Shown: in pieces, positions 245 through 58,240 of the stretch | How positions within the stretch are numbered: position 1 is the stretch's first letter | Layout: every line of letters begins with the position of its first letter | Assembly: GCA_024679065.1 (NCBI GenBank) | Contig: JAGIQG010000001.1 | Coordinates: forward strand, 108,748,001-108,812,000 | Origin: Sphyrna mokarran | Taxonomy: Eukaryota | Direction of reading: 5' to 3' | DNA length: 64,000 bases | Notes under the pieces: model-generated | What the model saw: the letters and a program-made list of their open reading frames with translations, nothing else | The model's database searches: none | Told to the model about the DNA's origin: nothing | Program-made: the position numbers and the translations under genes

Positions 245-400
<156 letters not shown>

Positions 401-13422: not shown

Positions 13423-13653
<231 letters not shown>

Positions 13654-13796
13654 TAAGTATTAATCTTCAATTGTTTATCAGAACTGAATAAATGAACCAA
13701 AGAAATGATTGAATAGAATCTCTAAACATCTGAATTGAAACTCAAAACCCCCAAACCTACATGTTTTAAAATCTGTTCTCATGAAAGTCAGTTTAC

Positions 13797-14070
13797 TTAA
13801 AGTTTATCTATTAGTGTCACAAGTAGGCTTACATTAACACTGCAATGAAGTTACTGTGGAAATCTCCCAGTCGCCACACTCCAGTGCCTGTTTGATAACC
13901 AAAGGAGAATTTAGCATGGTCAATGCACCTAACCAGCATTCTTTTGGACTGTAGGAGGACACTGGAGCACCTAGAGGAGACGCATGGAAATCATGCAAAC
14001 TGCACACAGACAGTGACCCAAGCCGGGAATCGAACCCAGATCCCTGACACTGAATGGCAATACCACCATA
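13797..14070 (-). mobile_element. HE1-related SINE with an alternative 3' tail
   Basis: Same head and core, but the tail gtcacaagtaggcttacattaacactgcaatgaagtta is also found inverted at ~17497-17612. Confidence 0.8.
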
Positions 14071-15061
14071 CTACCTAATCTAATTTTAGAGAACTATTCC
14101 TGACACCTTTTATCAAACACCACTTTTTATATTTTGTCAAACTTGTGTGGTAAATCCACACAATCATGCAATTGCTGCATGTTTGATTTGTAACAGTGCA
14201 GTAAAATGAAAACAACATGGGAAAGACTAGAAATTTACAGCAGGGACACCAATTTTAATTATATCAAAAATGCAAGAGATTGAGAATGCTTTTATGAAAA
14301 GGAAGCCAGCTTCTCAATTTCCAAGGGCTAACATTATAGTAAGTCAACCAATAGTGTGCCACACTATCCGGGGTATCAGCCAGATCTCGGATATGACATG
14401 TCCAACCCAAACTGCAAGTTTCTGTTGGAATCTGGTTAGGAAGGATCTTCTCTGTTAAGCCCTAAGATGGCCACTCAAGCTGAAGTGGCCATTGGTAAGA
14501 GAAGAGAATGTCAATCTCGTAATGGTGAAAGCAGGTTGGCATGAGGCTTCTGGTTGTTGAACAGCTGGGTAAACCATTCCAGAGTTCATCCTCAATAGGT
14601 GTTTGAGTAGTAAAAATGTAGCCCACCAGTGGTTTGAGGCCTGAGTCATGAGCTGGTCCCCAGTCAAAATTCTGTGCACGTGACTTCTTAACAGCACCTT
14701 ATAAGGAATAGCCATTGGAGTCAATTGCAACATTCCCAAATAGTCAGCACTGTTTTTGCCATATTTGCCTCCACACCACACTTTCTCTGATAGGTTCCTA
14801 AGGTGCCCCCATAATGTTGTGAGTGCCCAATACTGCTGAGGTAATTGGTTGACCTTGTTCTGACTCAGCAAATTCCAGGCAGAATTGATTTGCGCCTCCC
14901 GACACTAACTTCAACAATGCAGCACCAAGGATTTTCTGCTGTCTAATGTATTGAAAATAGTAGAGGTTTTGAATGAAAAGTTAGAGCCATTGCATAGAAG
15001 ATGATCAATGCATAAAATATGAAAGGATTTTCATTAGGCGTTTGAATGGGTTTCTCACTAG

Positions 15062-15358
<297 letters not shown>

Positions 15359-17161
15359 TGACTCACCTTTTCTGAGCCCTTCAGAAAGACAAACTTATGT
15401 GCTCACCACTGCATCCAATTGATTCCTTGGTGACAGCGTGGACTGAATAGTAGAGGAACAGAGGAAATGGGAATGGGGAGATTTTCCAACACTGTTCCTT
15501 CACATTCACAGTGCACCTGTCCCACCACTCCGCTTGTCCATCATACCTTATTTGTATGATACCGGGATAGAGCGGGACAGAGAAAATAACTTTCATGGTC
15601 CAGTATAGCTAAGCTCAGGTAAGACCTGCAAAGGGGTGACAGGTTGGGGTTAAACACACATACCATTTTGATCATCCCTCTCATACAGATTCGAGAAATG
15701 TCAGACAGACATTTTCTCTCCTCCGTGGAGTGGAGAAGGTGCATTGACTTTTTGGAACATTTTTAAAAAATAAATTTTGACGAAATGGATTTTTCTTTCC
15801 CTACTCGCAATCAATTGTCCAGAGTGTGAATAGCAGAATAATGAACAGTCGCGTCCAAAAGCAAAGAAAAGAAAAACAAGGCTAAGACAAGCATGTGTTT
15901 AATAAAATGTTGAAATAATATTTCTGGTCAGAGATTATGGTCTGAAATCATTGAACTCAATCTTGAGTTTAGAAGGCTGTGAAGTGCCTAATTGAAAGAT
16001 GAAATCTGGACCTTGAACTGGAACTAAATCCTGATAAAATGTGGTGACAATAGGAAATATAAACCTCAACAATATAATGTTATTAATGTTAGAAGAAATT
16101 CGACTCGGTAGCAAAACAGCATGATGGTCAGGAAGCATGGAATTACAATACAGAATGATTGGCTATATTGTAAATAGCTGGAAGAGGGGAACATACTATA
16201 GAAGTATATTAACATAACAAGTTAGCTGGCTTCATAAACCTCTTGAGCTTCATTTTTTGACTTTCTAGCATAATCTTGGTCTCTTATAAATCCAGGCAAT
16301 GCTTTTTTTTCTCTAGGGGCCATGTTTTGATTGCTCAGTTCTCTTTGATTAGCTTAGATATTGTCTGAAGATGAACTATAATGTTCAAGGAACTGTCAGA
16401 TGAATCAATCTTTCCATTTACTGTATGTCAGTATTCACCAACTATCAACTGCTCTCTTTTATTTCTGTAGAAGCTTTGGAGCAATTACACAGGTTTTAAG
16501 AAAGTGAAGATAATTTGTTAAAGAGAACATGAGTCTTTCAAGTAAATCTCAAAAGTTTCAAAGGCAACTTCAATTTTGAAAATCAAACAGAACTCCAGGT
16601 TAGAATGTAGATCCGTCAATTTCTGCCTAAGTTAGCCAATCTGAGTTGCAGTTGGGATACCACAATTGATCATTGTACTCTTGGACCCTTTCATGGTTTA
16701 TTTTCATGATAGTTAAAAATCATATGACATGGAAGATGGCTGTTTGGTCCATTAAACCCATACTGGCTCTCTGCAGAGCAATGCAGTTAGTCCCATTTCC
16801 ATACGGTAGTCATATAAGTCACGCGAAGATGAGATTTGGCCTGGGCTTGATGTCCCATCTGGAATGCTCCCAAGTATTGTCTAAACTCATGCAGAAAAAT
16901 TAGCCACTTAGACAAATTGTTTGTTGCTTGGGAGTCATATCTCAGTATAACATAATAGAGAAAATGTTAGAAACTATTATTAAAGTTAGAAACTATTATT
17001 AAAAGCCTTTACAGGAGGAGATACAGTGGGATTTACTTCATATCAGATAGATTTTTAAGGATCCACTGGTTGTTCAGCCCTGCATTCAATCTGCCCATTT
17101 AAAATGGATGATAAAAGCAATGTAACAGTAAGAGGAATTTTAAAGGCATGCAGTTACTTTG

Positions 17162-17612
17162 AGCGACACAATGGCATAGTGCTTAGTGCTGCTGCCTCAC
17201 AATGCCATGGACCTGGGTTCAATTTCTGGCTTGAGTCACTGTCTGTGTGGTGTTTGCACATTCTTCCCATGTCTGCGTGAGTTTCCTCTGAGTACTTTGG
17301 TGTCCTCCCACCGTCCAAAGATGTGCAGGTTAGATGGATTAGTCATTCTAAGTTACCTCTTAGTGTATCAAGATATGTAGGTTAGGGGTAAGTACTTGGG
17401 GTTTTGGGGGTAGGACCTGGGTACAATCTCTGTTGGAGAGCTGGAGCAGACTTGATGGGCCGAATAGCCTCTTTCTGCACTGTGGATTCTTTGATAAACT
17501 CCCTCAGTATGCCCAGACAGCTGCTGGAGTGTGGCAACTAGGGGATTTTCACAATAACTTCATTGCAGTGTTAATGTAAGCCTGTTTGTGACTCTAATAA
17601 ATAAACTTAAAA
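17162..17612 (+). mobile_element. HE1-like SINE followed by a fragment of the alternative-tail SINE
   Basis: tRNA-like head atggcatagtgcttagtgctgctgcctcac...gggttcaatt; CR1-type tail to ~17490; second tail to ~17612. Confidence 0.82.
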
Positions 17613-18599
17613 GTTACTTAGTGTTATTTTGAACCGCCATTATTCTCTCAGCGATGAGGATGGGGGGATGTTGAATAACGTCAACCAAGCAGTGCCAGGG
17701 AGATCAGCCAGTTACTCCCCTCATTTTAGCATCAAGCAGTCTGGAAGTCCGGCATCTTTTATCACAGAATAAACGAGAGGAGCTTCCTCTGCAGAGCTAT
17801 CGCATCTAAACATAGCTGCCAGTGTATGCTATAGATACAGTATGGTGCTGATGACTGTCAAAGCCATCTCCTCCCCCATCTATTATGCCTGTGCAGAACT
17901 AAGTTGAGGATTACATATAGCTTCAATCAATTTGCTCTCCTTGTTGTATCAAGCAAGTGATTGCAACATCATTTACTTTCTCATCTTTCCCATTGAACAA
18001 CAATGTCATGACTTTCCAATATCCAATAATTGCTGTATTTCCCAACACTATCAAAATTGCTGTAAGAGCAATTTGGAAGGAAGCACTAACATTGTGAATT
18101 TATGTGCTTGTGCAATCATGTTGCACATTATGTTGTTAAGGGAGGAGACAGTCACACTTGCTGCTGTTACTAAAGTGATGGGTTCATCTGACCCAAAGGG
18201 AGCAAGTGTTCCTAGAGGAATTGCAGTAACTAAGCTAGAGTTTTCATTCATAGGCCAAGCGCTTCCTTTCACATTTTTGGCACAACAGGAACTACATTCA
18301 GTGTGATCCTAGCACAGAGCATGTCATAAGACGATCACCAAAAGCAGGAAAAGGCTGTCAGTGATGTCAGGTGACATATACATGGTCTTAAACTCTGCTG
18401 CTCCATTACGTGAGGGCACAGCAGCCTGGTAAAGACAGTGCAGGTAAGGAGACTGACATTTATCAAGGAGGCATGACCGAGATATGCCATTGCTTCTGAA
18501 AGATCACTGTCTAATGAGTAAAATGCTAAAAGCAATTAAAGTTAGTGTGGTCTTGATTTTCATGCATTTGCGATTTCTACTCGAATACTGGTTGGGTGT

Positions 18600-19850
18600 A
18601 ATGTCATAGGGAAAATGTTCGAAACTATTATTAAAGCAACACTAGTAGAGAACTAGTAGAGAAATTCAAAGCAATCAGGCAGAGCCAACATGGTTTTGTG
18701 AAAGGAAAATCATATTTAACCAATCTACTGGAGTCTTTTCAAGGAAGTAAAATGTGCTAAGGATGAAGAAGAACAGGTGGATGTACTGCACTTAAATTTC
18801 CAAAAGGCATTTGACGAAATGCCACATCAGTGGTCATTGTGGAAAACAAATCTTGTTGTATAGGAAGTAACATATCGGCATGGATATTGGCAAGCTAACA
18901 AGAGGCAGAGAGCAGGCATAAGTGGGCCTTTTTCAGGTTGGCAAGATGTAACAAGTGATGTAACATGGGGGTCAGTGCTGAGATCTCAACTATTTACAAC
19001 TTACATAAATGACTTGGATGAAGGAATGGATGGGATGGTTGCCAAATTTGCTGCTGACACAAAGATAAGTAGGAAATTAAGTTGTGATGAGGACATGCAA
19101 AGATATAAGGAGTTAGGTAAGTGGACAAAGATCCATCAAATGTAATATAATGTTGGAAAGTGTCCATTTTGGTACAAAGAATGAAAGGTTACAGAGCTCT
19201 GAAGTGCAGAGGAATCTGGATGTCTTACTGCATGAATTATATAAGGCTAGTTTGCAGGTACAGCAAATAATTAGGAAAACTAATAAAATATTATCATTTA
19301 TATGTGCTATTATCAAGTAAGGGAGGTCATGCTTCAGTTACATACAGCACTAGTCAGATGACATTTGTAGTATTGTGTACACATCAGTCACCTTATTTAA
19401 GGAAGGATATAAATGTGTTTGAACCAGTACAGAAATGATGTACCAAACTAATACCTGGAATAGGCAGGTTGTCTTATGAAAAAATGTTGAACAGACTACA
19501 TTTGCAGCTGCTGGAGTTTAGAAGAGCAAGAGGTGACTTGATTGAACCATGTAAGATCCTGAGGAGTCTTGATAGGATGAATGTGGAGAGGATGTTTCCT
19601 CTTGTGGGAGTATCTAAAATTAGGGGTCATTGTTTAAAAATAAGTGGTCATCTATTTAAAATGGAAAGGGGGTGAATTGCTTTCTCTGGGAAGGTTGTGG
19701 ATCTTTGGAACTGTCTTCTTGGAAAGGAGGCTGAAGCAGAGTCTTTAAACATTTTTAAGGCAGAGGTGAATAGATTCTTGGTAAGTAAGGGGGGGGTGGT
19801 GGTGGTGAAAAGTTATCAGGGATAGGCATGGCGCAGATTTGAAGTTACTA
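18600..19850 (+). mobile_element. Older CR1 LINE, RT region to 3' end, decayed
   Basis: SQHGFVKGKS, LNFQKAFD, NDLDEGM...AKFAADTK and RARGDLIE motifs with stops and frameshifts. Confidence 0.88.
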
Positions 19851-20415
19851 TCAGACAGTGACTTGTGCATCTTCTAATACCTGTCCTCTACTGCAGCAAA
19901 CACAGCTCAACAGTGAGGCTCCTAAGCAACAGAAGACAATGCACAGCGCAAAGCTGATGATCACAGCACAAACCATCATCTTATGAAACAGAAGGTGTCA
20001 CTAATGGCTGACTGCTGTGCACCCAAAACCCAATATGTCGCTCCTACTGGCTTGTGAGAACAGTAACATCTTTACATCAGCTAACCAGAATAGGAAATCA
20101 ATGAACCCATAAATAAAATAAGCCATAGAAAGTCAATCTGAACTCTATACACATAATATGGTGACAGATAACAATGCTGATGGGAAGAAACAAAATCAAG
20201 AGACAAAGTTAAACATTTTCATCGTATAATGCTTTTTGAGCAGTCAGCTAGCTCTTCTGGAGTTATATCATCTAAGATATAATAATTAATAATGCAGTTT
20301 GGGGATGATTTTAAAAAGTAGATAGTTTTGTCTCTCCTAATGAGCAATAGAGAGATGGACTAAAATGTACATTTCTGTATCATGCTATGTAATATATGTG
20401 TCCTTTATTTTGTAG

Positions 20416-20479
20416 CCTCCTCCCCAGATCTATGATAAGCAGCTTGATGAGAGAGAGCACAGTATAGATGAATGGAAAG
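20416..20479 (+). CDS. MAPK10: JNK3 coding exon (64 nt)
   Basis: PPPQIYDKQLDEREHSIDEWK; tttgtag/gtaatg boundaries; PPPQIY differs from JNK1 PPPKIP. Confidence 0.95.
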
Positions 20480-22564: not shown

Positions 22565-22642
22565 AATTAATCTACAAGGAGGTGATGGATTTTGAGGAGA
22601 AAACTAAAAATGGTGTTGTGAAGGGGCAGCCGTCTCCCTCAG
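22565..22642 (+). CDS. MAPK10: JNK3 penultimate coding exon (78 nt)
   Basis: [26 protein letters not shown]; ttgacag/gtaaat boundaries. Confidence 0.95.
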
Positions 22643-31924: not shown

Positions 31925-32345
31925 ATAGAACATAGAACATAGAACATTACAGCACAGAACAAGCCCTTCGGCCNNNNNNNNNNNNNNNNNNNNNNNNNNN
32001 NNNNNNNNNNNNNNNNNNNNNNNNNNNNNNNNNNNNNNNNNNNNNNNNNNNNNNNNNNNNNNNNNNNNNNNNNTCTCCAATCTCTTCAGTCTCCACGCAC
32101 AACTTCCCACTGCTGTCTATGACTGGCGCTAATCTTATCCTAACCAATCTTCTATTCTTAACATATCTAAAGAAAGCTTTAGGATTCTCCTTAATCCTAT
32201 CAGCCAAAGTCTTCTCGTGTCTTCTCTTAGCTCTCCTCAATTCACTCTTTAGCTCCCTCCTGGCTAATCTATAGCTATCCATTGCACTAACCGAGCCTTC
32301 AAGCCTCATCCTGACATAAGCCTCCTTTTTCCTTTTAACCAGCAA
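31925..32345 (-). mobile_element. Young CR1 LINE spanning the assembly gap
   Basis: (TAGAACA)n tail left of the gap; ORF2 peptide ELRRAKRRHEKTLADRIKENPKAFFRYVKNRR to the right. Confidence 0.88.
31974..32073. other. Assembly gap (100 N, probably a placeholder of unknown length)
   Basis: Run of exactly 100 N. The flanking CR1 pieces imply the RT domain is missing, so the true gap is probably larger. Confidence 0.98.
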
Positions 32346-32862: not shown

Positions 32863-35800
32863 CTCATGTCTCAGATTCACTGAAGATCTACAGAAAGAGA
32901 GGTTCAAAGAGGTGACAGAGAGGTTCAAACACATGTTACACATTATGGTTCAGTCCTGTGTCCAGTTGTGTTCTCATCTGTCACCTCAATACTCTGCAGT
33001 GAATACATATTTATCTCAGCACCTGTTGCAAGAAAGCCCACAGTCCCTATCCTCTGCTACAATTATAATTACTATTGTCTGTCAGAGATACTTATATTAG
33101 AGCCATACAGAATCTGGCTCTTCCTTCAACTCTGCCTGAGGCTGACTAGGAGATCAAATGAATTGAGGTTTTGCACAGATCAGTGATCTCCTAGAGTCAG
33201 CTCCCCTGTACCTCAAAAGGAATGCTGTGCTAGAAATTAAGGTCAATTGTATAGTGGGAGTGGTAAAGGAAGCAGTCTTTCTTAATGACAGCACTGTATA
33301 TTTTTGCAGCCCTCCTTTCTGAATAAATTTTCCATTCTGATGTCAGCAAACTGGGCCAGATTGCCTGAGCAGGGATCCAATTATTGCAGCCTAAATCTTC
33401 CCCTTTTAGGGTTGACCTCCAACAGATTGGCAATCACTAACTTTTTTAGGAGCCCTGGAAAGACCATGAAAACTTAGTCCTCTAATGATGTAGCCACTAA
33501 GAATCATCTTAAAATGTGTAAAAGAACTTTATTCAGTCCAAAAATTGTGCAGGCCTTAGTACAAATCATTCAACCCAGAATGGCATTTGAGACTAATCCT
33601 TTAGTGGCAGGTGACTTTGCAATGTTTGGTGACATAAATAGCAACTTTGAATATAATATTTGGTTTGTAGGTTGGAAAGTAGTAAGATAGCTGTTGGAAA
33701 TGACTGGAAAGCAGAGATCTTCAATGAGCTGCTGTCAGACAGATCTGGCTGGGGATAACTATTGAGACATATTCTGCTTCTTTACGATTTCCTAAGCCCT
33801 ACAACATTCTCATTCATTATCCAGCAAGTCACCCTCCAGTGGTAGCTCCATGCTGATGCCCTCATTGCAGAGCAGATACATGCAGCACATACTGAACAGA
33901 AGGGAGACGCCCTATGGACCACATTGGAGGAAGCCACTCCTCTTTCCTCTCTCCTCACTCTGCACTCTTCTCTCTGATCCTACAAAAATACCACAATATA
34001 TTCTGTTGTTGCTATGCTTGAAGGATATTGCTTGGACACCATGAAGCAGCCTTGTATTAAGTCACAAAGAAGTCTTTATTAACAATGCTGATCTATGTAC
34101 ATATTTACAGTAAGTATATTAGGTCCCCACACACTGTTACTTATCTCTAAATTGATTTCAGCTTTAAATCATGTGCCATTATCATGTAGGTAGCATTGTG
34201 TGCAATCTCTTGTTAACCCTTTATGTTCCAGATCATTCTGCCAAACTTTTCTCTCATTGCTCTTCTCTTCTACCTAAATTTCTGTGTGTTGATTCCAGTA
34301 ATCTTTTCCAGTTGACCCATAGATCTGACATGTGAAGTTCTGTTGCAGAGAGTGGTTTCCTAAGAGATGTCATCGAATAGTTGTGTAGCAAATGGCCCTC
34401 ATGTCCAAGTAACCAGGCTTCCTCTTGTGGTGTAATGGACAAAGAATGGGAATAGATATTGCTATTCTTTTGCTGTCATTGTGTCAAAATCTTGGAGCTC
34501 CCTACCTAACATCACTCCTCCCCTGTACCACAAAGACTACAACAGTTCAAGAAGCTGGCACAATGGCACTTTCTCAAGGACACTTAGGGAAATAAATTCT
34601 TTGAGCCTGAATTTCCCACATTCTGTGGATTAAAAATAAAATTGCTTCCTTGACATTTCTAAATGTTTTAATAGCTCTCTTGAAAGATTAAGCATAGCCT
34701 CCACTATGCAGAAGGGATATTCCCATTACCTGTTAGAATAGTTCACAGAGAAGAACCAGAAACTCTCAGATATCATGTAAAGTTAGCCTAGATTTTAAGT
34801 TTTACATTTGAATTTGGCATTAGTGAGCATAAGGTATTTCAGTCCTGGTATGATTCAAGTGACCCACTAAGAAGGTTTTATCAAACAAAATCTATTTAAG
34901 AAGACAGTTAGAATATACCTGCAAGAAATAGTATAACTTTTACAAATTACAAGATTTAGATATGACACAGTATTACTCCTAACAGCTAGTTACCTATGTT
35001 ATTCCAACGTAAATATACCACAGATACGTACCTTTGGAATTAGCACAAAAATGAGTATGCTCACATAATGTTCAACTTTTTAATACTTCTGGATATGAAC
35101 ATGACAGCCATTTTTGGAGAAGGATGTATCCTTCAAATAGTACAACTGCAAAGAAGTAAACTTAATAATAGGCAAATTCCAATACAGCAGCACCTAAACA
35201 GGAAAAGATACTGCTATTTCTCTTAATTTTAGGCTGCTTCTGAAAATGCAACTAAAAACTGGAATGCTTTGTGAAAATGGCTGTGATCAATCACATAATA
35301 ACCTGTCAATCACCCTCCAAGATCCACTTAGTAATCCCAGGGAGCATTAAAAACCACAGAACACTGCATTAGTTCAGATTAAAATCAACATGATTTCAGT
35401 TATACAGCTTTAGTAACAATAAAGGACATGGGCTGCAGACAACATGGTGCCGACAAAACATCCTGCAGAGAAACATTAAAATATATTTCTTAAAAGTACA
35501 TTACCATCATATATTGTACAGAAAAATCAACAACTATTGCATTTGCATCATGTTTGTTGGCTGGAATGTCACCACTCATTGAAAAGTGAATTTTCAAATG
35601 TGTCAACGGAAGGTCATCACACCAGAGGATTGATGTGATTGATTAGCTTGCCAGAGTAACTGAGTGTGCCTATGCACAAGTATTCTTTGATGCCGTTTTG
35701 TCCCTTAAATCAGAAACAGTCACCCAGAAAAATACACGTTTTGAAAGAATTGAACAGCGTTTTCTGTAACTTTCTCTTCTGGATGATGGCCTAGACCAGC

Positions 35801-36048
35801 TAAAGAAGGAAATCTCACACTGCTACCCTATGGAATATGATCGGCCAATATTTGGTGTCAATATAAAGCTGAAACTGTTTAGCACTATCACTAGTATGAA
35901 AACATGCTTTTGGCAGGAAATGCAACAGGAGCTCAATTTTTTCAAAAGTGGGCTCTGTACTGTGCATGTCCTTTATTAAAGAGGAAAGAATGTAGTCCTT
36001 AATGAAACTGTGTTCCCGGATTTTATGGCTCTACTGTTAATTTCTCAG

Positions 36049-36065
36049 CACAGGTGCAGCAGTGA
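36049..36065 (+). CDS. MAPK10: JNK3 terminal exon, short (p46-type) C-terminus AQVQQ* from the upstream acceptor
   Basis: tttctcag|CA CAG GTG CAG CAG TGA; the AG at 36047-36048 is 5 nt upstream of a second AG at 36052-36053, the classic JNK arrangement. Confidence 0.88.
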
Positions 36066-36193
36066 ATAGCAGCGAAAGCCTTCCTCCATCCTCATCAGTA
36101 AATGACATCTCATCTATGTCAACCGATCAGACCCTCGCGTCCGACACTGACAGCAGCCTGGAAACTTCAGCAGGACCACTTTGTTGCAGGTGA
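36054..36193 (+). CDS. MAPK10: JNK3 terminal exon, long (p54-type) C-terminus
   Basis: [46 protein letters not shown], near-identical to the human JNK3 alpha2 tail; stop TGA at 36191-36193. Confidence 0.96.
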
Positions 36194-36235
36194 CTAACCG
36201 TCTGCCTGCGGAGCCCCTTCTTCTTTAGAAAATGA
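36191..36235 (+). CDS. MAPK10: Putative stop-codon readthrough extension of JNK3 p54 (X-LTVCLRSPFFFRK*)
   Basis: TGA CTA ACC GTC TGC CTG CGG AGC CCC TTC TTC TTT AGA AAA TGA. The UGA-CUA context is readthrough-prone, and human MAPK10 is an established UGA-CUAG readthrough gene. Confidence 0.7.
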
Positions 36236-37075
36236 TGCAAGTACTAAAAACTCAGCGCACCTCTCTGGAAAAGAACTATTTAAAAAAGAACATGGAAGTA
36301 CTGATGCTAAAATATTATGTCAAAATGCTTTGCTTATACCTCATTCCAATGAAACTAACGCTCATTAAGAGTATTAGGCAGCATCATTTCACATGTAAAT
36401 ATGTGAGTATAAATAAGCTCCCTGTGGCACTTGCTTTGGCAACGCAAGGCGAGCAGGAAAGATGCAGCATTATAGTTAAAACTAAATGCACTTTCGTCTC
36501 CTTAAAGTTGCAATATATGTCCCTTCTTCCACTTATTATGTATTTGCTGACTATAAACACCTTGTAGAAATATAATCCTATAAATGGCCATATACATATT
36601 ACCTACCAAAAATCTCATGGAACCCATGTTCATGACAGTAACTATGAAAATGACAAACAATGCAATTCTATTAATCCTTTGAGCATTGAATTTCATTGTA
36701 GTTTAAAACACATAAAAAAATTAATTTGTAAGTCTAATTAAAGGGACATCCAAAAATACAAACCATTTCTGACCATGCGTAGACTATAAACTTAATGTTC
36801 CTTTTTTTGTTTCGAAACATTATGGCTTCCATGAACTGTTAAAGAGTTTATACTTTTTCTCTTTGGCCCAATTGGGCTGCAGTTTAAGTTTGCCAAATAC
36901 ATATAATTTACAAAAATCTTATTGTAGTTGACCAATTTTCATAAAACGTATCAATGTCTGTGGGCTGATGTTACGTTATAAATGGTAAGGTGGTGGCTAT
37001 GTTCTGTTATACTTTCTGTCATTTATACAAAACTAAATTGAACGCCCTTTTAATAAATTATGACAAGGCAACACA
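36236..37075 (+). other. MAPK10: Probable proximal MAPK10 3' UTR (true end unknown)
   Basis: AT-rich, repeat-free sequence after the stop; Pumilio-type TGTAAATA at 36394-36401; first AATAAA seen at 37052-37057, another at 38003-38008. Confidence 0.4.
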
Positions 37076-38619
37076 TGCCATACATTATGGCATGATTCTG
37101 TTCATTAGCTTTTGGACATGACAATGTGACATTATCACTCAAATAGAATTAAAATTGAGTAAGACGAGCAAACTCAGTTAGATTTACAATCTGACTTGAG
37201 AGATTCTGAAATTTCTGCTCATACATGCATTTGTATGCTATGTTTTGAGGTGGCAGGAACATCTGGCCAGTGAAGTAAAAGACATGCACATATAAAGCAA
37301 TCGCACATCTTGACATAATTGGCTGCAGTCTTTAGTTGCACTTGCCTGTAGTTGTGCATGATCAAACTTCCAAATATATTTAAAATGGAAGGAAAAATAT
37401 ACTTAGATATACTGTAGGCTATTATATGGTACATAATGTATGCAGCCAAGGACCTGAAAAGTTTGCTATATTCTTAAACTCCTTTAATGCTGAACCTGCA
37501 TGGACTCACAATATGTCTACTCTGCTCCCCAGCAAACATGGTGGAATTTTATGGACTCATTGCAGTAGGGGCAGAGCCAGAAAAGGTAGCGAGTAGTTTG
37601 AAAGTCCATTGACTTCACTGGGATCAGAAACTCCCACCACAGAGTTATTTTGAATTGCATTAACCAGAATCAAATTTATTAACTGCCCACTTGAAATTAC
37701 AATGAAAGTTGTAATTACTGGTGGGATGCAAAACATGAGAGACTAACATTCAAGAACATGACTAATGCAAACTCTACTAAAAAAGAGCATTGGGGTTTAA
37801 AACCACAATGAATTTATCTTAAATCAGAAGGTTCAAATTTAGGTTCAGATCAGGACTGAAATGACACAAGATGACATTGTGCAAGATTTGGTTGAGTTGC
37901 ATATTTGTGAAGAAGTAATTTTTGGGAAAAATGATTGATTCTCAAATGAAAATCAGAAAAATTGGTTACATGACTGGGTATCTAAAATCCTTGGAACATT
38001 TCAATAAATTATCAGTAAAAGAGTGCTTTCAAAATAGTAATTAGGATGTAGCAAAACTCTATTCGCTTCAAGATAAAAGTTATGGATAACGATAACTGAA
38101 ACTGAAAAGTAAGCACAAAGAGGACAGAAATGAATGTACTTGAGGGAATAACATGAATTCAGTGAAACATATATTCTGATATGAAACACAGTAAGCATTC
38201 CTATTCTCTGGCTTGTCGCAGTGAAACTGATTACTAAATGATCTGAAGCTGTTAATGGCACGAACCCCTGTTGGTGGTGAGGACATGTCAGAAAACTTAA
38301 GCTGCTGAGCCTCATTGAAATATCCTTATTTTGTCAAACTTCATCTCAAATTTCCCAACTTGAATGAGACTTCATCACCTGCAATGCACATGCACAATGC
38401 TTATGTATTCCCATAGATTTCAAGCTTGGCCTATGAAGTAGGTTTACAGGGAAGATAATGTCATACAGTTGTCAGGAATAATATTTGTTTTCTTCTTGTT
38501 TTTATTGCTCCATACCTTAATTGATTTTATGAGGTTGCCAGTCCACACTTCCAATTGTTTACTTTGCTAATACATTCCTTCCTATTATCTCACATTTCTG
38601 CAGCCATTTAAGTAACAAT

Positions 38620-40385
38620 AACCAAGTGGTCAGATTGGGAATTTATTGGAAATGTTATTGGATTTTATTATTCAGGTAAGGGAGATGATTAAGACTAGGA
38701 ATGTAATATACCAGAATTATAAACTCTACAGGAAAAATAGGGAAAATGATAACAGGGAAGTAGTCTTTGTGATTAAGAATGCGATCATTTTGATAATATG
38801 GGAGGATATAATGAGAGGCAATTGAAATGGGTAGAATTAAGAAATTGAAAAGAACTTATGACTGGAATGAGATTTAGTTATTTTCCCAAACAACTGTGGG
38901 GTGGTAGATTGTATACATGCTGAATGGTTTTAATGAAGATTTTATCTACATGAACTTGAATAAGCAGACTAACTCATGTCAGAAAGGCAGTGGATTTCTT
39001 GAGTGTGCCCTAGATAATTTTGTGCAGCAATTTGCCTTACAGCCAAAAAGAAGGGGTGGGCATGCTAAGTTAGATTTTGTAACAGACAATGTGCCAGATT
39101 TAATCAACAACCTAATGGCATGTGAATGTTTATCGAACAACTATCATAATATTCAAAGCCATGTTTGCAAAGAAGAAACACAAAACAACTACAAAGATTA
39201 CAAATTCGATGACGTTGTCTTCAATGGGATGGGACAAAGACTGTTCACAGTTAACTGGACAATTCTGTCAATTGGTAAAATGACAAGATCAGTAGGAGTT
39301 ATCTTAAAAAGTTGTCTTGGCTAAGGTCCTGCACTTGATAGAAGTCAATGAGCTTGTACTGAGATTTCATTAGAAGCAATCTAAGCCTTTTGGCTAAGAT
39401 GGAGCTTTTTGTAATGCCTGCTCCTATCAGCTTGGATTTGGTTGATTGACTTCAAGACAGGAAATGCGCAGACTGTAATGTCTCTCTTGTAGGGACTTTA
39501 ATTGGACTTTGATTGGATTTTGATTGGATATAACAAAAAAAAATGTGACACAGAACGAGTTTATACCCCTAAGGAGTAAAAGCTCTACTTGTCAAAATAA
39601 ATAATCGTGGGCAACTGAAGAGGTAAAGGACAACATAAAACTAAAAGAAAAATCAGACTAAAATGGAAAAAGAAATCAGAAATCTTAGCAGCTGGAAAAG
39701 ATACAAAAACAGCAAAGGGTGTTAAAGTTAAAAGCTGCAAAAATAGAGTACTAAAAGAAACATGCAAACAATGTAAAAATCAAGGCCAAAAACTTATTTT
39801 ATATAATTTCATTTGGAAAAAGAGGGTAGTCAGAAGCAATGTGAGTTTTTTGTAAACTGATAATGGTGCTATTTTCAATGAAATGAAGATGACAGATATG
39901 CTGAATAATTACATTGCACTAATGTTTACAGCAGAGGAAGAGGTTAGAATGCTAGATATCCCAAGGAAATGAATCTAGATCAGGGAGTCAATTAAACTAA
40001 CATAAGCAAAATAAAAGTAATGAAGAAAATAAGGGCACTAAAGAATGAAAAATCGTCAGGACCCAGATAATACATATCTCTGAGTTTTAAAGGAAGTGGG
40101 TGAGAACATTGTAAATGGTCTAGCTATAATTTTCCGACATTTTCTTGATTTGGGAAGTGTTCCTTTAGATTAGAATATGATGCAGTCATTGCTATTTTAG
40201 AAAGGTATGAGAGAGAAATAAAAACAGTTAGGGAGTTAGCCTAACATTGGTTACTGAGAAATTACTAGTGTCTATAAAGAAGAAAAGATTAATTGAACAC
40301 CTTGAATATTTTCAGCTGATCACAGAGCGTCAGCATGGATTTGTAGAGGGTAGGCCATGCTCACATACCTGATTAGACTCTTAGA
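38620..40385 (+). mobile_element. Highly decayed long CR1 ORF2 remnant (endonuclease to start of RT)
   Basis: Residual motifs FLECALDNF, LDFV, LNNYIALMFT, KSSGP and QHGFVEGRPC. Confidence 0.7.
39310..39543 (+). mobile_element. Short poly(A)-tailed insertion containing a U2 snRNA-like segment
   Basis: GCCTTTTGGCTAAGAT (39385-39400) is identical to the U2 5' region; TGTAATGCCTGCTCCTATCAG (39410-39430) matches U2 TGTAGTATCTGTTCTTATCAG at 16/21; ends in three ATTGGA-containing repeats and an A run. Confidence 0.55.
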
Positions 40386-40407
40386 AGATGAAATAGAAGC
40401 CCTGCTT

Positions 40408-40800
40408 CAGGGGAGATGATGACATAATGGAAATGTCACAACACCAACAATCTAGAAGTCCAGGCTGATGCTTTGTGGCCACAAATTCAAATCCCTATAT
40501 GCAAGTGGTGGAATTTAAATTCTATAAATAAAATGTGGAATTGAAGGCTCCTCTCACTAATGGGGGAATCAGCACTAATTGTTTTAAAAATCCATTTAGT
40601 TCACTAATATATTTTAAGGAAGGAAATCTGCCATCCTTACCTGGTTGGGCCTACATGTGAATCCAGAACTACAGCAATGTGGTTGACTCTTTACTGCCCT
40701 CTGAAATGGCCTAGCAAGCCACTTGATTCAAGGGCAATTAAGGATTGCCCAATAAATAAGTGCTAGTGACACTGACACCTCATTAACAAATAAATTAAAA
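40408..40800 (+). mobile_element. tRNA-derived shark SINE (third family)
   Basis: Head with ttcaaatccc, body ggaaggaaatctgccatccttacctgg...gcaatgtggttgactct, and A-rich end. Confidence 0.65.
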
Positions 40801-41037
40801 AATATACACGAAGCCCAGGTTAGAATACAGTGTATATTTCCTTGTATGATACTTGGACTCTAAGGGTTAAACTTTGGGCAGTTACACAATTACATTCCCT
40901 GAATTTAGAAGATTAAGGACTGATTTTATCATTTTTTAAGATATTGTGAAAAACAAAGTGGATAGAGAGCAACTACTTCCACTGGTTGGACAGAGATTTG
41001 GGTTCTCTTTTTAATGCACTTCCTGGAACCATCAGGC

Positions 41038-41087
41038 GCCACCCCCCCCCCCACCCCCCCCCACCCCCCCCCCCACCACCTCCCCCC
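41038..41087. repeat. Poly-C low-complexity tract (G-runs on the minus strand)
   Basis: gccacccccccccccaccccccccca...; source of the poly-Gly in ORF 40973-41260. Confidence 0.9.
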
Positions 41088-44000
41088 AAATATCCACAGG
41101 TTGTCATTTTCTTTTGACGTCTCAAACTAACCCCTGCCTCCCCACTCCCCTTGTCTCCTTTTCTGGGGTCTGCCAACTGGGCACTCAGCAAGATCCCCAT
41201 ACATTTACTAAATGGTAGAGAGCTACCAGTTTCTAATTGGCCAGCAGTTCTCAGAGGCACAGCTTCCTGTTCCTAAGAGATTAAAATTTCCCTCCAGCCT
41301 ACTAATGAACAATTGGCTGTTAAATGGCTGCCAGGCAGCAGCCAGCATTCCCTTGACAGACTTCTTAGGTGGTGATGTGGAAGACCCTGGAACCATGTAA
41401 AAATTCAGCCAATTAAGTTAGCTTGTGGATCACCATGCTCTCATTCAATGATGGAAAATCTTGAGGCTCTAAAATGGCTTAGTCCTGTTCCTATGTTCCT
41501 CAGATATATTCACAGTGTTCAACAAATATATGACAGGACCACCATAAGGATTTTCTAATCCTTTACCACCCTATGTTTGGAAAATTTGTTTCAGCTTACT
41601 TGGACATTTCCTAATCTTCACCGCTTGTGATATAGAAAGGGGTTGCCACAGAAGTGATGTATCCAAATAATCAACATGTGCAATAAAAACATCTTTTCCC
41701 ACAATAGGGAAGCTGATCACAGAATAAGACTTTTATTCCTCTCAATCTACCAAGGATTCCCTAATATGTCAGGCAGTCAGCAGTGCACAACTAAATCGGG
41801 CATGGCAAGTTTACCATTTACCCAGAAGCAGCCTTTTTTATGCAGAATCCCCTCAGTGCCCACATTTTGGAAAACGTAATACTGAATGGCTGACTCTTAG
41901 GAGAGGAGAACTGTTCTTCTGCCCTGATGGCAATGAGAAATCGCCATGCAGTCATCAGCCAAGGAGTACTGAAAACTGGGACCCCCATCTCTGTTTTTCA
42001 CATTCTAACATGCAGTCTGTGTGGTTTTGGCATAATGAGCCACGTACGTGAATACTAATGGTACATACACTGGTTGAAACTGTATCTCAGAATCACTGCT
42101 TTGTATTAAGGATGATGAGCCCCACAAGAAATATGTGCAAGTGACTCACATTTGACTTGGCCCTGACACTAATCCCTCCTTTCTTATAATTAGTATAAGG
42201 GATGTGGTTAGCTCCAAATAGCAATCATTATTTTCTGACACACAAAGACAGATCTTCTACTCAGAGCAAGTAAGGCCATTTAGATTTCAGAATTTTTAAA
42301 AGTAAAACATTAGTTAAAACTGCTTTATAACGTCTGTGTCTCGAAATGTTATTCAAGCATCTAGACATTTTTGCTGATATTTTTCAAAATTATGGTGAAG
42401 ATTAAATGTTCTTGTCTGCTTCCTACCAGCTTCAAATATCATTGTCTGTGTCAAAGAGTGTTTCTTCTGCTCCATTTGGAATCAGTTGTCCACTTTTGGA
42501 TTATGGTGTAAATTGCACCTTATAGTTAGAGTAAGAGTTACATGCGGGCTTAGTTTTTAAAATTTTTTTACAGGATTAATTAGCATGGTAGAAATTAGGA
42601 AATATAGTTTGAGGTTCCAAAGACATACTTCATAAGCCATCAACATTCCTCGACCCATTTCACAAGACTTACATTGTTCAAGAATTTAAAATGCAAGTTG
42701 TTGTATTTGTATTGACAAGATCATGAAATGTCCTATATTTTACAGCAGCAATGATTTTTTTTGTCGTTAAATACTTTATTAAATAACTTCCTCAGTCCCA
42801 CGGCCCTCCGAGGACTCAGCATTCCTTGAATTCTGGTCACTTTCATATGTTAGGTTTAATTAGCTCCATAATGCTTTCAGTTGTTTAACCCCCCAAAGTT
42901 CTGGAATTGCTTTCTTAAACCTCTCATCCTTTAAGATACTCCATAAATGCTATCTCCTTGACCAAGCATTTAGTCTCCCACTCCAATGTCTCTTTCCTGG
43001 GCTCAGCACCAATTTTCAGTTTGTCTGATTGCACCCTTGTGAGGCATTTTGAGACATTTTACAACAGTAAACACATCATATAAGTGTGAATTGTAATGAT
43101 TGAATGTTCAAATCATATAAGTTATTCAATTTTTCACTATATTTGATCTAACTTTTTTGCTGTTAGCAATCTGATGCCTCTGTTATCAACAGTTTAAATG
43201 TTTACCAGACTGGGAAACACCCTTAATTTTCCCCATGGAGAGCTTCCACCATTCTGCACTCAACACTACCTAGCTCCTGATACATTAAACATTATTATTC
43301 CAAGCTGCACAGTCTCTTCTATATCCAGTATTGGTAAAAGCTGAACACTATGGTTACTGGAGCCAAAATCAGGCCAATTAGTTTGATCATTGCTGCAGTT
43401 ATATAAAGGCAACCCAGAATCCAACAAAGTGTAGCTGTCCCCTTCAACCAATCTGTTTACAGTATTAGAAATGAGATGTGTATGGAAACAGTCTTCTAAC
43501 TGACCGTTCTACTAGTGGCAGTGCAGCAGAATAAGCCTGTTCATGGTCTAACATGGAAACTGTGTTCTAAATTGAGGCCATTCATATTATTGAAGTGGGC
43601 TACAAGTTATCACCAAGCATTCACTTCAGTGGTGTCCATCCAGATTTCCCATGTAAGGTAGAATAGCTGACAGCCACCATGAGAGGTGCCCTCAGGCTCA
43701 TGTCAGGCTGACAAACACCTGGCCAAATAAGGCTGCAGCTAAAACATGGACTAGAATCCAGCCGAGAACATGTTCCATCCAGTTTTCCGACCTCTGATCT
43801 AGGAATTTGCTAGCACTCTGCTTGAGAACCAATTGAAAATTTGAGGGCTAAAAACATGGAAGCCAATTTGCTCACAGCAAGTTCCCACAGAGAGGAGTGG
43901 AATAAATGACCAGATCATTTATTTTAGTTGATGGCTGAGGAATTTTAATTCATGTTGTTATCATTATTTGTCATGTTTCTACGTGGCACATTGACAATGT

Positions 44001-46234
44001 ACCATACATGGAGTATCAATAAGGCACAGAGCAGGCCAGACATACAAACTATTATAAAATAGTTGGTGTATTTTACAATATTCCTTGACCTATGATCATC
44101 TCTTTGGGACGGTGAATACACATTGCCACACATAATCAGATGTAACATCTATATAGATAAGAAGCCCCTGTCCTGTTCTAATATTGATTGCATCTGGACT
44201 GAGAAAGACCCAGCAGCCAAACAGCATGTTAAAACATTGACCTTTTCCTAAATGAAGCAAACTTTATGCAGCATCTAGCTGCATTAGGTGCATTAGTGGT
44301 GTTCAGCACAGTTCAATTTGTTTGAAATATCTGTATAGTAGGCTGAAAGCTAGAATGGAAAGATATTTTTAGCAATTATAGCAAAAGATTTCCATCTGGT
44401 TTACCTTCTTAACACTCTGACTTTGGCTGCAAGAATAGATGTGCAAACCTAATAGGTAAAATGAGGGATACAATTAATAATTATTACATTATTTGAAAAG
44501 ATGGTTGATTCCCAATTCTATCCCAAAGTGAATTTGAATTTCAGAATTCTACATCCAAGCAATTTCAGCAGCAAAGGTGGCTGAATTAGTTAGCCCAGTG
44601 TCCCTATACAATAACATGCTTGCGAAGCACAATGTACTAAAGGGCTAAAAGGCTTTATTGCTATATTTTGTAGCAGAACATAGCTAACCACTAAGCTGAA
44701 TCCACCCTGAAGTCTGCATGTTCTTAATAATCGCTTATCTTCTAAAATCAATGGCATGACAGCATATAAATTAATGATTCCTTTCTGATTTCCTGCAGAG
44801 ATGTTTGCAAATGGTTCACAGCAGGAAGTTTCTCCCAGACTGTCTGGGTGACGGGAGTCCATTTATGGAAGGCTATTTTCAAACTTTATGGTTACAAAGT
44901 TAAAAGACCAGAATTAACAAAAACACGGCATCGCTGCATGTGTTCTCCCTGAGGCTTTTGTCCTTCAGACTTCTAACAAAGATGCCTCCTATAAAGCTGA
45001 TGGCATGAAGTCTATCCAAGAATATACAGATTGCTTCTCTTACTGAAAGTGTGTGAAGCACTATCTGCTTGTACTAACAGTGGGAGGGGCTGCTATAAAG
45101 TTTCCTGGAGCTGTCAGTCGATCATCAATCATTTTTATAACGGTCATCTTCAACAGAATGTCCTTCTCTTCCCCTCCTGGATTTGTATTTTATTTTTTTT
45201 GGAAAGGGGAGGAGGTGGTGGGATACGTGTGTGATCAATTGAAAGGGAGCACTCCTGCATTTTGAATAGCCGAATCACGCAATATCAATATCAAACTGCT
45301 TTCGGATTTATTCAGAGTGTTATTGAGTCTCACCTCAAATGGACAAAGGGTGTTTTGGGGAGTTGGGAAAGAGGGAGTGGCAATGTCGTTTTGCCCTGGA
45401 CAAAACATCCCCCTGGTTGAACTGAGATGTCCATAATCTGATGGGGACAGGGAAAAACTATCAAAAGAACTGAAATTTAAACAAAATACCCTTCAACACC
45501 AGATATTGCCTTTCTGAGAATGGTAGAATTATTCAATTAATGGACAGTGAGAAAAGGAGTCAGTTAGTGGTCCAATTTTGGCAGTGAACAATTAACATTT
45601 TGATGGCTCCGCATTGCACTGTGTGTGAAGAGTAATAACTGAGTGTAACAGGTCTGTTGGGACAGCTTGTTGAGGGGTTTTCAAAAACATGTTTTGTTCG
45701 GGGAAGAGGATTTTGTATGAAACAAAGTTTAAAAACAATATTTTAATGAACTCAATACCATTTGTCAGTCTAACTGAGAATGTGTTCATAACATCCAGGT
45801 ATTTTCACTTAATGGCGGTGCAATAAGATTTCTTTCTGAGACCGCACCATTCTGAGGTCAGCTGCGATCACAACTGGAATCTGATGTGACAACTTTGTGT
45901 CAAGTTTGATTTTAAACAAACTCTGGTGGTTGCTTTTATTTTGTACTGTTTGTGATCAATTTTGTTAGGATGTGAGAATGAGATTTGTGTCCGAACTCTA
46001 CAGCAGTGCTGAGGAAGATTGTTCCTCAAGGTCTGGCTCCAGGATCGAACTCGAATTTTCAAATCAAAACTGGAAGGGAAATAAAGCACTCAAACTTTTA
46101 AAGCTACTGTGTATGTAGAAAATATATGTATGTGATTAAAGGAAAATAAAATACGCCTTTAAAATGGGAAATCATGTTCCTTTGTTGCATAAACGTTTGT
46201 TGGTTTAGTGAACTTGGTCTGAGCATAAGGCCCT

Positions 46235-55314: not shown

Positions 55315-58240
55315 TGTGCCAGCATGGCCCTTTTAAAGGGCAATTCTTAAGAGCCAAACGATTGGGCTGGACACTATGAAGAGGCAGCAGAGGAAGCCAA
55401 GCTAATCTGGCACAAGAACGCATATCCTGGGTCGAGATGGAAGTCAGTTGAAGCCAGGGAGGAGTGGAGAGTAATCTTGTGTTCAGTTCTGTCAGATCTT
55501 GTTTGCATGTAGCTAGTTAAGAAGGCATATGGAGTCTTGGCTTTTATTGGTAGGGGGATTGAATTTTGGAGCCGCAACGTCATGTTGCAACTGTACAAAA
55601 CTCTAGTGCGGCCGCACTTGGCGTATTGTGTGCAGTTCTGGTCCCCGCATTATAAGAAAGATGTGGAGGCATTGGAGAGGGTACAGAGGAGGTTTACCAG
55701 GATGTTGCTGGTATGGAGGGCAGGTCTTATGAGGAGAGGCTGAGGGATTTGAGGTTGTTTTCGTTAGAAAGAAGGCGGCTAAGAGGAGATCTTATTGAAA
55801 CATATAAGATGATTAGAGGTTTAGATAGGGTGGACAGTGATAGCCTTTTTACTAGGATGGAGAAAGCTAGCACAAGGGGACATAGCTTTAAATTAAGGGG
55901 TATGAGTTATAGGACGGATGTCAGAGGTAGGTTCTTTACCCAAAGGGTGGTTTGGGAGTGGAATGCCCTGCCTGCAGCAGTGGTAGATGCGCCAAGTTTG
56001 GTGGCGTTTAAGAGGTTAGTTGATAAGTATATGGAAGAGAAGGGAATGGTTTAGTTTGGAGGGGCATTGCTTTTTATATTGGTCGGCGCAACATCGAAGG
56101 CCGAAGGGCCTGTTCTGTGCTGTAATGTTCTATGTTCTATTTATCATCAGTAGTAAACCTTTTATAACTTTAAGCCACATCAAGTGGCCTTCGAAGTTAT
56201 TATAGCAGCGGCAAGGAACAACTTTCGTTAGCCCTTAGGGATCGGAGTGTGCGGCTAGAGGGGGGGGAGAATTGAATGTTGAAACTGTCAAGAAGTAAGG
56301 TACATACAGATGCCTTTAATTGGAAAAATTGAATTATTTGACCCAGAAGTGGAAACCGGGGGATAGTATATCAAAAGGCTGTGTTATTTTTTTGTAGCAA
56401 ATAAAATCACAGCAGAGGAAAAGCGAGAAGTTATACGTCCCACAGACTTACAGTTTAGCGAAGAGTCTAATGTCGTCTGATACCCCGACAATAGTCTTTT
56501 GACAAGATAGCCAATCAGTCAAAAATCATTTTAACCTCCGACTGCCAATCATTATATTGCAATTAAAGTTTCGTTCAGCTGTCTGAAACCCAGCAGAGAC
56601 AGTTTCAGATTTTGTGGCCATATTGAAAAGTTAGCAAGGCACTGCAAATTCAGCCCAGCTTTAGGAGAAATGTTAAAAGAGTTTTTGATCTGTGGTAATA
56701 AATGGCCTCATCATGCAGAAGTTGTTACTGGTTGACATCAAAATCTCTTTAGAAAAAGCTGTGGATTTGGCCCAGATGACTGAAGCATTGAGTAGGGTGT
56801 AAACACGTACAAGGTGTGCCCAATGGGTGAACAGTTTGTGCTGGAATAGCTCAAGAGCAGGCACAGCAGAGCCTGAGTAGAGGGCTGGAAGCCTGATTTT
56901 GATAGAGGGGAGAATACTCCCAAGAAGCTTGCTGATACCAAATTTATATATGTTACAGTTGTAATTGGAAAGATCGTTTATAAGCATGCTGAATATGGAT
57001 GACATTTCACAATAATACCAAAATAAGTTAGGTTGCCAATTACCACCAAGGGTACAGAAGTGCGCTCAACTGCATACATTCCCATATCACCCAGAGACAC
57101 AAATATCAAATGTGGAAGCATTCTGCCATTTACCTTTGCTGCAGACGCAGTCATCACCACCGATCCCACAGGAAATAGTGTTGATGCTGCACCTATTAAA
57201 GACTTTGCCGATCTCAGCTAAACACAGCCTTCTAAGCATTAGTAGTACGTTGTACAAATGTTCAAATCATTGATGAAGAAACACATTAGTAGGCCTCCAG
57301 CTCTACGTATAGTCAGTTTCTCATTGACATGTAACACCATGCCAAATGCAATCACAGGGGTCAACACCAGCTAATCTACTAATGGAATGCCATTTATGGA
57401 CAAAACTGGATATGATATTCCCAGATTTGGTGGGGACGGTGAAAGCTAGACAAGTCTTCCAGAAAGAAAATCATAACTTACAAAAAAAAAGTTTTCCAAG
57501 TTTATGATTTAATTCTGGTCAGAAACTTTGCAGCAGGGCTGGAATAATTGTGGAAAGAACATTTTCTATGTTGTAGAAATATAATGTCGTCCTGACAAAA
57601 AACACATAGACCATTTGAGGAGAAAGCTAGGTCTGACAAGGCGATCAAGATGATCCCTGCAGGAGATTTGGATACAGAGATCCTATTTGTAAATGTGGAA
57701 CAGAAGCAACCAACAGTTTCTGTCACTAAGGAGACAACAGCTACAGAGGAGGATCTCAACTCTAGATTGATGAATTTATCTTTCCCAACTATTTGACAAG
57801 ATACATCATTTCCCCATGCGTATGAAACAGAATTGAAATGTTCTATCAAGTCCAGAAGTCCCCGGACCAACTGAGCGTGTGATGTGTTTTCCTTGAGTAT
57901 TTCTGATGTCTTGTTGAACTGTGCATGCCTATGTTTAATGATGTTCCTTTTGCTTCATCAACAGTTGAACTGAGGAGTTGGGGGGAGGAGAGAGTGTGGT
58001 AATGTGACCCCTTTAAGGGGTCAATCCTGAGGGTCACATGATAATACCCTTGGAGTTGCAGTGCTGGATGCCAAGCCAATCAGATGCAAGGCCGTGTATC
58101 TCGAGTCCAGGAGGATTCTCAGCTGGAGTCAAGGGAGGAGTGAAGAAGTCGTATGTTCAGTTCTGTCTGACCCTTTATATTTATCGTTAATAAATGCTTT
58201 ATCACTTTAAGCCACACTGAGTTGCCTTTGAAGTTGTTAA
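55315..58240 (+). mobile_element. Internally deleted, decayed Gypsy/Ty3-like LTR retrotransposon
   Basis: Similar LTRs at ~55315-56204 (split by a CR1) and ~57995-58240, both starting TGTG and sharing agggaggagtg, tgttcagttctgtc and actttaagccaca. Gag-like MPLIGKIELFDPEVE...YFFVANKI from 56310. Integrase C-terminal remnants at ~57318-57620 (TKLDMIFPD, LVRNF, KHIDHLR). Polypurine tract at 57980-57994. Confidence 0.8.
55516..56140 (+). mobile_element. Young 5'-truncated CR1 nested in the Gypsy 5' LTR
   Basis: LQLYKTLVRPHLAYCVQFWSPHYKKD and RRLRGDLIETYK; (ATGTTCT)n tail; same family as 1763-2685. Confidence 0.93.

Follow-up and report, generated by a model that had tools for sequence, protein, structure and literature searches.

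A probable elasmobranch orthologue of the programmed MAPK10 (JNK3) UGA readthrough site in the shark Sphyrna mokarran

Overview

The UGA codon that closes the p54 reading frame of the brain kinase gene MAPK10 (JNK3) in the shark Sphyrna mokarran is very probably a site of real, selected, low-level readthrough, the elasmobranch orthologue of the programmed MAPK10/JNK3 UGA site. It lies in the window analysed here, a stretch of 64,000 nucleotides (assembly GCA_024679065.1, contig JAGIQG010000001.1, positions 108,748,001 to 108,812,000 of the forward strand), in which its anatomy and its orthology are directly observed. Readthrough in the shark, and a purpose for it, we infer along the following lines. 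On p54 messages most ribosomes would terminate after Cys-Cys-Arg, and a small share (about 1 to 5%, the range of modern reporters of the human site) would decode the UGA via a near-cognate tRNA and translate 13 further codons to a second UGA; the weak UGA-CUA context, together with the bases from -10 to about +27, would permit this decoding. Near-cognate decoding of UGA inserts tryptophan, cysteine or arginine. The elasmobranch site is not new, because conservation reaching beyond the bony vertebrates, as deep as the lamprey, and a variable, non-G fourth base are already contained in Loughran 2014 (PMC4132726); as found, it adds one more species to that conservation claim and confirms known biology.

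Gene and isoforms

Six JNK coding exons lie on the forward strand (309-380, 13457-13639, 15153-15277, 20416-20479, 22565-22642 and the last from 36049 or 36054; for the features discussed here see Table 1). MAPK10, and not MAPK8 or MAPK9, is the nearest match of the kinase exons and the p54 tail: among PDB chains the exon at 13457-13639 scores 111.9 bits against MAPK10, 108.1 against MAPK8 and 92.1 against MAPK9, and the last exon, aligned to full-length JNK3 (3tti_A) over 46 columns, agrees in 44 and departs by a single substitution and a glycine that is lacking. Five exons, together 192 residues, are identical at 190 positions to Narcine bancroftii, at 190 to Callorhinchus milii and at 187 to the best bony fish. 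The missing glycine, located ahead of the palmitoylated cysteines (36176-36184, forward strand), is also missing in Narcine, but not in Callorhinchus or in 108 other named records among the matches listed; this one-codon deletion is an apparent elasmobranch marker. Because of the five-exon match to ray and chimaera and the glycine loss common to the ray, assignment of the gene as an elasmobranch MAPK10/JNK3 is supported.

The stop codon in question is that of the p54 frame, which is entered by an acceptor before 36054. An acceptor before 36049 leads into the p46 frame instead, which stops at 36063-36065, and in p46 messages the readthrough stop is never in frame; p46/p54 splicing is described in 10.1101/2020.11.17.387191.

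Several other features of the window may be recorded here. The exon at 309-380 (forward strand) belongs to the beta type (6b, "exon 7") of mutually exclusive kinase exon and is intact in this JNK3, with an unusual asparagine following the subdomain IX aspartate; its partner exon lies outside the window. The donor behind it (381-388) has the sequence GTATCCTT, in which no more than 3 of 9 positions match U1 and which corresponds to the consensus of the minor spliceosome (U12); ahead of the next acceptor (about 13435-13456, forward strand) stands a U12-like branch sequence. U12 introns have been described at this place in JNK genes. In the seven species studied in 10.1101/119891, the 6b-type exon was absent from JNK3 transcripts and diverged; it is present in named JNK3 records of eel, gar, paddlefish and a bird. 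The last intron contains an assembly gap of 100 N (31974-32073). LINE reverse-transcriptase-like frame fragments (1755-2612, 18864-19142 and 55656-56051 on the forward strand, and others) and repeated SINE-like elements occur as well. At 53237-52968 on the reverse strand a convergent gene has its last coding exon, which encodes a coiled coil and for which an atlas search returned generic coiled-coil clusters only; this gene is presumably ARHGAP24, which in mammals lies tail to tail with MAPK10.

Table 1. Features of the MAPK10 region in the window
Feature	Position	Strand	Remark
Three internal kinase-domain exons (13457-13639, 15153-15277, 20416-20479)	13457..20479	+	identification of gene and taxon
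Penultimate MAPK10 coding exon, phase 1 donor	22565..22642	+	
Alternative acceptor 5 nt upstream and p46 frame, TGA at 36063-36065	36049..36065	+	
Coding part of the last exon, p54 frame, ending Cys-Cys-Arg (TGT, TGC, AGG), without the glycine	36054..36190	+	
Predicted hairpin pairing the last codons, stop and donor with +7 to +18	36184..36211	+	fold prediction
5' splice-donor-like site over the stop, cut after 36189	36187..36195	+	pairs with U1 at 8/9
Leaky stop context TGA-CTAA (probable)	36191..36197	+	canonical motif ends in G
13-codon readthrough extension (probable)	36194..36232	+	8/13 residues as in human
Second in-frame stop TGA	36233..36235	+	orthologous to the position of the human/mouse stall peak; orthology of the stall itself presumed
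Candidate alternative last exon, preceded by a pyrimidine tract and CAG, phase matching the stop donor	44799..44952	+	

The stop codon and its extension

The last two sense codons ahead of the first stop are TGC and AGG; TGA follows at 36191-36193, then CTA, then A at 36197. Between this stop and the second in-frame TGA at 36233-36235 (next base T) lie 39 nt, that is, 13 sense codons (36194-36232) encoding LTVCLRSPFFFRK, exactly as an earlier reading of this DNA from its letters (the sequence-only reading) had described. At least 13 open codons after a TGA are common in the window, on both strands (1305 of 2856); exactly 13 sense codons follow 70 and CTA follows 27 of these 2856 TGA triplets, and a single one, that at 36191, combines both. 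The UGC-AGG-UGA-CUA sequence and the 13-residue length of the MAPK10 site of Loughran 2014 are thus both present. The window falls outside the strict seven-base UGA-CUAG class, with A for G at +4, and inside the published range for MAPK10. The tail ends in Arg-Lys and is by inspection without a peroxisomal signal.

Selenocysteine recoding of the UGA was rejected, since no Rfam family, and so no SECIS element, matched at gathering score within 35000-46000. Polyadenylation hexamers are first met after the second stop, at 36737, 37052, 37148 and 38003 (forward strand).

Conservation

According to Loughran 2014 (PMC4132726), the extension has a constant length of 13 residues and is kept back to the common ancestor of mammals and lamprey; UGC-AGG-UGA-CUA is invariant and is followed by G in 68 of 73 orthologues and by another base in five, the eight bases following the UGA-CUA(G) motif are conserved chiefly as nucleotides, and in mammals the PhyloCSF score of the extension exceeds that of 99.96% of comparable UTR stretches. 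Conservation across 100 vertebrates, also published, drops sharply beyond the second stop. In comparison with the human oligonucleotide (supplement of PMC12233894), all ten bases before the stop and eight of ten after it are the same in the shark, the differences being at +4 and +8, and the window equals the human wild-type bases named in 10.64898/2026.07.14.738498 at +11 to +15. When the extension is compared by eye with the human peptide (PMC12976096, Table S1), positions 1, 4, 5, 6, 8, 10, 11 and 12 are identical; the human peptide that the sequence-only reading had given agrees with that table and has the same length as the shark one, with 8 of 13 residues shared. Orthology to the human readthrough extension, with equal length and deep conservation, is therefore supported as that reading had proposed.

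Its further suggestion, selection at the level of the peptide, stands in part. Within the first five codons shark and human differ by two non-synonymous changes (those at +4 and +8) and by no synonymous one, all five third positions being unchanged; because both differences change an amino acid and no third position differs, the proximal part looks like a nucleotide signal, in keeping with what Loughran 2014 states, and conservation near the stop would accordingly be at the nucleotide and not at the peptide level. That the peptide itself is constrained is plausible in its distal half and in its fixed length, and the mammalian PhyloCSF result supports this.

The last exon together with the extension was also used as a query in protein searches. 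Against longer proteins, 120 of 230 matches were listed, and the counts given below use the 110 named ones, leaving out 10 unnamed; against proteins of near-equal length there were seven matches, of which the four named ones were used and three unnamed ones left out. None of these 114 named JNK records among the matches listed carries the extension.

Level of readthrough

Reporter values for human MAPK10 range from about 14% (fused reporter) over 4-5% to 1.2-1.8%; fused reporters can overstate readthrough, as was shown for OPRL1 (PMC5513072). Controls with the second stop gave about 0% for human MAPK10, so that the reporter signal can be attributed to readthrough, and UGA-CUA alone supports about 1.5%. 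Tagged full-length MAPK10 was expressed too poorly for Loughran to detect the extended protein.

That the shark stop is likely to be read through despite its CUAA, as the sequence-only reading had it, finds support in a mutational scan of human MAPK10 (Toledano, Supek and Lehner 2026, bioRxiv 10.64898/2026.07.14.738498), from which the shark case is extrapolated. There, of the 765 variants at +1 to +4, 764 had reduced readthrough, and the sole exception was CUAA, which raised it from 1.76 to 2.28%. In the same scan 4G>A takes part in 6 of the 13 strong MAPK10 interactions with a sign that varies with the background, substitutions at +8 and +9 lower readthrough by a mean of 0.82 points, and the wild type is outdone by just one double mutant within +1 to +10, namely 4A with 8A, whereas the window has 4A with 8U. 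CUAA is thus no weakened motif, though a strongly context-dependent one; because of the cost of +8 changes, the combination with 8U and not 8A, and the changing sign of 4G>A, the shark level could fall below the human one. It is a reasonable inference that readthrough in the shark would be near 1 to a few percent. Since +4 A occurs here together with a +8 change, the shark context offers a natural test of the epistasis found in the scan.

In a literature search light on subscription papers, no readthrough measurement from a cartilaginous fish was found. MAPK10 readthrough data are absent from the searched parts of PMC4419486 and PMC13526858, two supplementary files of PMC5868278 have no MAPK10 row, and sharks or fish are not mentioned in the searched text of 10.64898/2026.07.14.738498.

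Elasmobranchs and humans diverged about 450 million years ago. Frame, length and second stop have been retained over this time, which argues against the stretch being, in the shark lineage, conserved UTR with negligible readthrough, be it owing to slow elasmobranch evolution or to a non-translational RNA element. Such a reading would agree with the non-synonymous nature of both proximal changes and with the +8 change, which probably lowers readthrough, but not with the sharp fall of conservation past the second stop, the level supported by UGA-CUA alone or the favourable effect of CUAA in MAPK10; it is considered very unlikely.

Function of the extension

Real, selected readthrough being the preferred reading of the site, the extension could serve as an element for readthrough followed by a pause, a function that we put forward tentatively. 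The proximal five codons would be retained as a nucleotide signal, while the distal Arg-x-Pro-x-Phe-Phe-Arg-basic stretch would slow termination at the second stop, a nascent-peptide effect that might tune JNK3 output in cis; Phe-Phe-Arg preceding the last residue is a candidate determinant of the pause. A peak of ribosomes at the end of the MAPK10 extension was reported from aggregated human and mouse profiles, MAPK10 being among three genes with a peak in both species, and functional stalling was proposed (PMC13025110); the peak is seen in profiles only, and the authors saw no motif in common with the AMD1 arrest peptide. This stall peak is the only in vivo-type evidence found for a function of the extension, and because it was published for human and mouse, a pausing role is likelier than the switch in membrane targeting that the sequence-only reading had envisaged.

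According to that proposal extended JNK3 would be a distinct proteoform, in which the internalised Cys-Cys, an additional cysteine and a hydrophobic/basic end alter palmitoylation and targeting to membranes or vesicles. The modification itself is real: the cysteines of the terminal CCR are palmitoylated, which in DRG neurons concerns about 25% of JNK3 and targets it to axonal vesicles (10.1101/2020.11.17.387191, PMC11417247), and the human extension likewise has Cys4 and the Phe-Phe-Arg end. The stability of a reporter was also left unchanged by the human extension (delta PSI -0.001; PMC12976096), so that an extended product could persist. The switch itself is unsupported and appears unlikely. 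S-acylation is not confined to termini, so a change of the cysteines from terminal to internal need not have any switching effect; the tail's hydrophobicity is only mild, with a GRAVY of 0.52 that 27.7% of 2305 stop-free 13-mers drawn at random from the window match or exceed; TargetP gave no targeting motif in four extensions (published); and a form present at a few percent makes a weak switch. Our literature search, which was light on subscription papers, returned no paper on the shark site or testing the function of the extended form.

Readthrough products are generally cleared via BAG6-linked pathways (PMC10364623), and the extension might accordingly be a degron or quality-control handle, by which a hydrophobic-ended product would be removed and readthrough would lower JNK3. 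This is extremely unlikely and was largely rejected: in the GPS screen stability was unchanged (PSI of 6.7335 for the wild type and 6.7325 for the extended form, in a peptide fusion with Arg at the stop and not in full-length JNK3; PMC12976096), and the hydrophobicity is unremarkable.

Cys4, Leu5, Arg6, Pro8, Phe10, Phe11 and Arg12, which are common to both sides of the jawed-vertebrate split, may serve as pointers for mutants that address stalling or palmitoylation.

A splice-donor-like site at the stop codon

The p54 stop is overlapped by a sequence resembling a 5' splice donor. Neither this site nor the published stall peak had been noticed in the sequence-only reading. On the forward strand, 22 of 3275 GT sites reach the strength of this site; the gene's real U2-type donors pair at 6 to 8 of 9 positions, the best of them equalling the donor at the stop (8/9). 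Splicing is not mentioned in the searched text of 10.64898/2026.07.14.738498, nor does "splice donor" occur in that of PMC4132726, and the overlap of donor and stop is an unreported extra. If the donor were regulated, splicing and readthrough would be coupled at one codon in a way as yet unreported.

Conceivably UGC-AGG-UGA-CU is invariant in part, or for the most part, on account of splicing from this donor to a downstream exon (44799), by which stop and extension are removed. The p54 product would then receive a different C-terminus, p46 messages would receive a junction 124 nt past their stop, a signal for NMD under the 50-55 nt rule, and a hairpin would mask the donor. Among the 110 named JNK3 records in the matches listed, 90 end at CCR, one diverges earlier and 19 continue past the joint, always with an AGN-type residue (Arg or Ser) after Cys-Cys, as use of the donor would give. 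However, 8 of these 19 are gene-finder models labelled "hypothetical", and unusual isoforms are over-represented among clustered representatives. Tails are common to relatives in the case of three cyprinodontiform fishes and of two seals, but vary between lineages. One place in the window strongly matches the tail of Narcine bancroftii JNK3 isoform X5 (10 of the first 12 residues at 44800, score 53, next best 27), behind a canonical acceptor and in the right phase; there, the frame is open for 50 codons in the window as opposed to 12 in the ray, and a protein search with the 44800 exon gave no match at E up to 10, which is weak evidence. Because of the differing frame lengths and the empty search, use of the 44799 exon may be a low-level by-product of a donor arising from the readthrough context. 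Splicing also leaves the fixed 13 codons and the ribosome footprints unexplained, and does not explain away the reporters, since the controls with the second stop gave about 0% and donor use would presumably remove those stops too. Splicing as the keeper of the invariance is, on balance, quite unlikely.

At 44848 a possible weak donor occurs, which could make the 44799 exon a short internal one. The change to CUAA creates a branch-point-like CTAAC (36194-36198), which is followed by a pyrimidine tract (proline and phenylalanine codons) and an AG at 36227-36228; it is possible that 36194-36228 acts as an alternative acceptor by which the p46 and p54 tails are skipped. Of 266 such pentamers one has this arrangement, under a rule that was set after the site had been seen and that the gene's real acceptors fail.

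Masking of the donor by RNA structure is suggested by a 60-nt fold, in which the donor bases are paired with a probability of 0.93-1.0. In the predicted hairpin +4 A lies in the loop and +8 U is paired; Loughran 2014 (PMC4132726) had noted a version of it with 7 bp. A strong z-score (-3.2) is obtained only for a 30-nt segment picked afterwards, as against -1.6 over 60 nt and +0.9 over 100 nt, and RNAz found no conserved structure in MAPK10 (PMC4132726). A rather speculative view, to which we give little credence, would have the p54 stop act as a three-way switch since early vertebrates, with ribosomes terminating or reading through and pausing, or the message being spliced to a lineage-specific last exon, and with the hairpin setting the balance. 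If this were true, the invariance of UGC-AGG-UGA-CU and of the third positions (to +15) would reflect splicing and structure besides readthrough, and elasmobranchs would hold a tuned variant with +4 A in the loop and +8 U closing the stem.

Comparison with known systems

The closest relative of the readthrough site proposed here is that of human and other vertebrate MAPK10 (PMC4132726), which shares gene, stop, UGC-AGG, UGA-CUA, 13 residues and 26 of the 28 known bases from -10 to +15 including the stop; human MAPK10 differs from the window in having G and not A at +4 and C and not U at +8, in residues 2, 3, 7, 9 and 13, and in one upstream glycine that is gone in the shark. With respect to the human CUAA variant (10.64898/2026.07.14.738498), the window naturally bears the change at +1 to +4 that raises readthrough; that variant was studied in HEK293T cells and in the human background, whereas the window adds the +8 change and other codons at -4 and beyond.

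AQP4, OPRK1, OPRL1, MDH1, LDHB and VDR share the core motif UGA-CUAG and the mechanism, but their extensions are different; those of MDH1 and LDHB bear a peroxisomal signal (PMC5868278), which the JNK3 tail does not.

With regard to pausing, the C-tail of AMD1 (PMC13025110) is similar in that readthrough runs to a second stop that is conserved and carries a ribosome peak, and in having Phe-Arg near the end. The AMD1 tail is about ten times longer, and its clamp (Lys117, Arg121, Phe124) and Arg125 hook have been shown structurally; by inspection, the Lys-x3-Arg-x2-Phe-Arg spacing of AMD1 is not found in the JNK3 tail, which shares only the Phe-Arg. The JNK3 tail may therefore act like that of AMD1, while it is not a member of the same class by motif.
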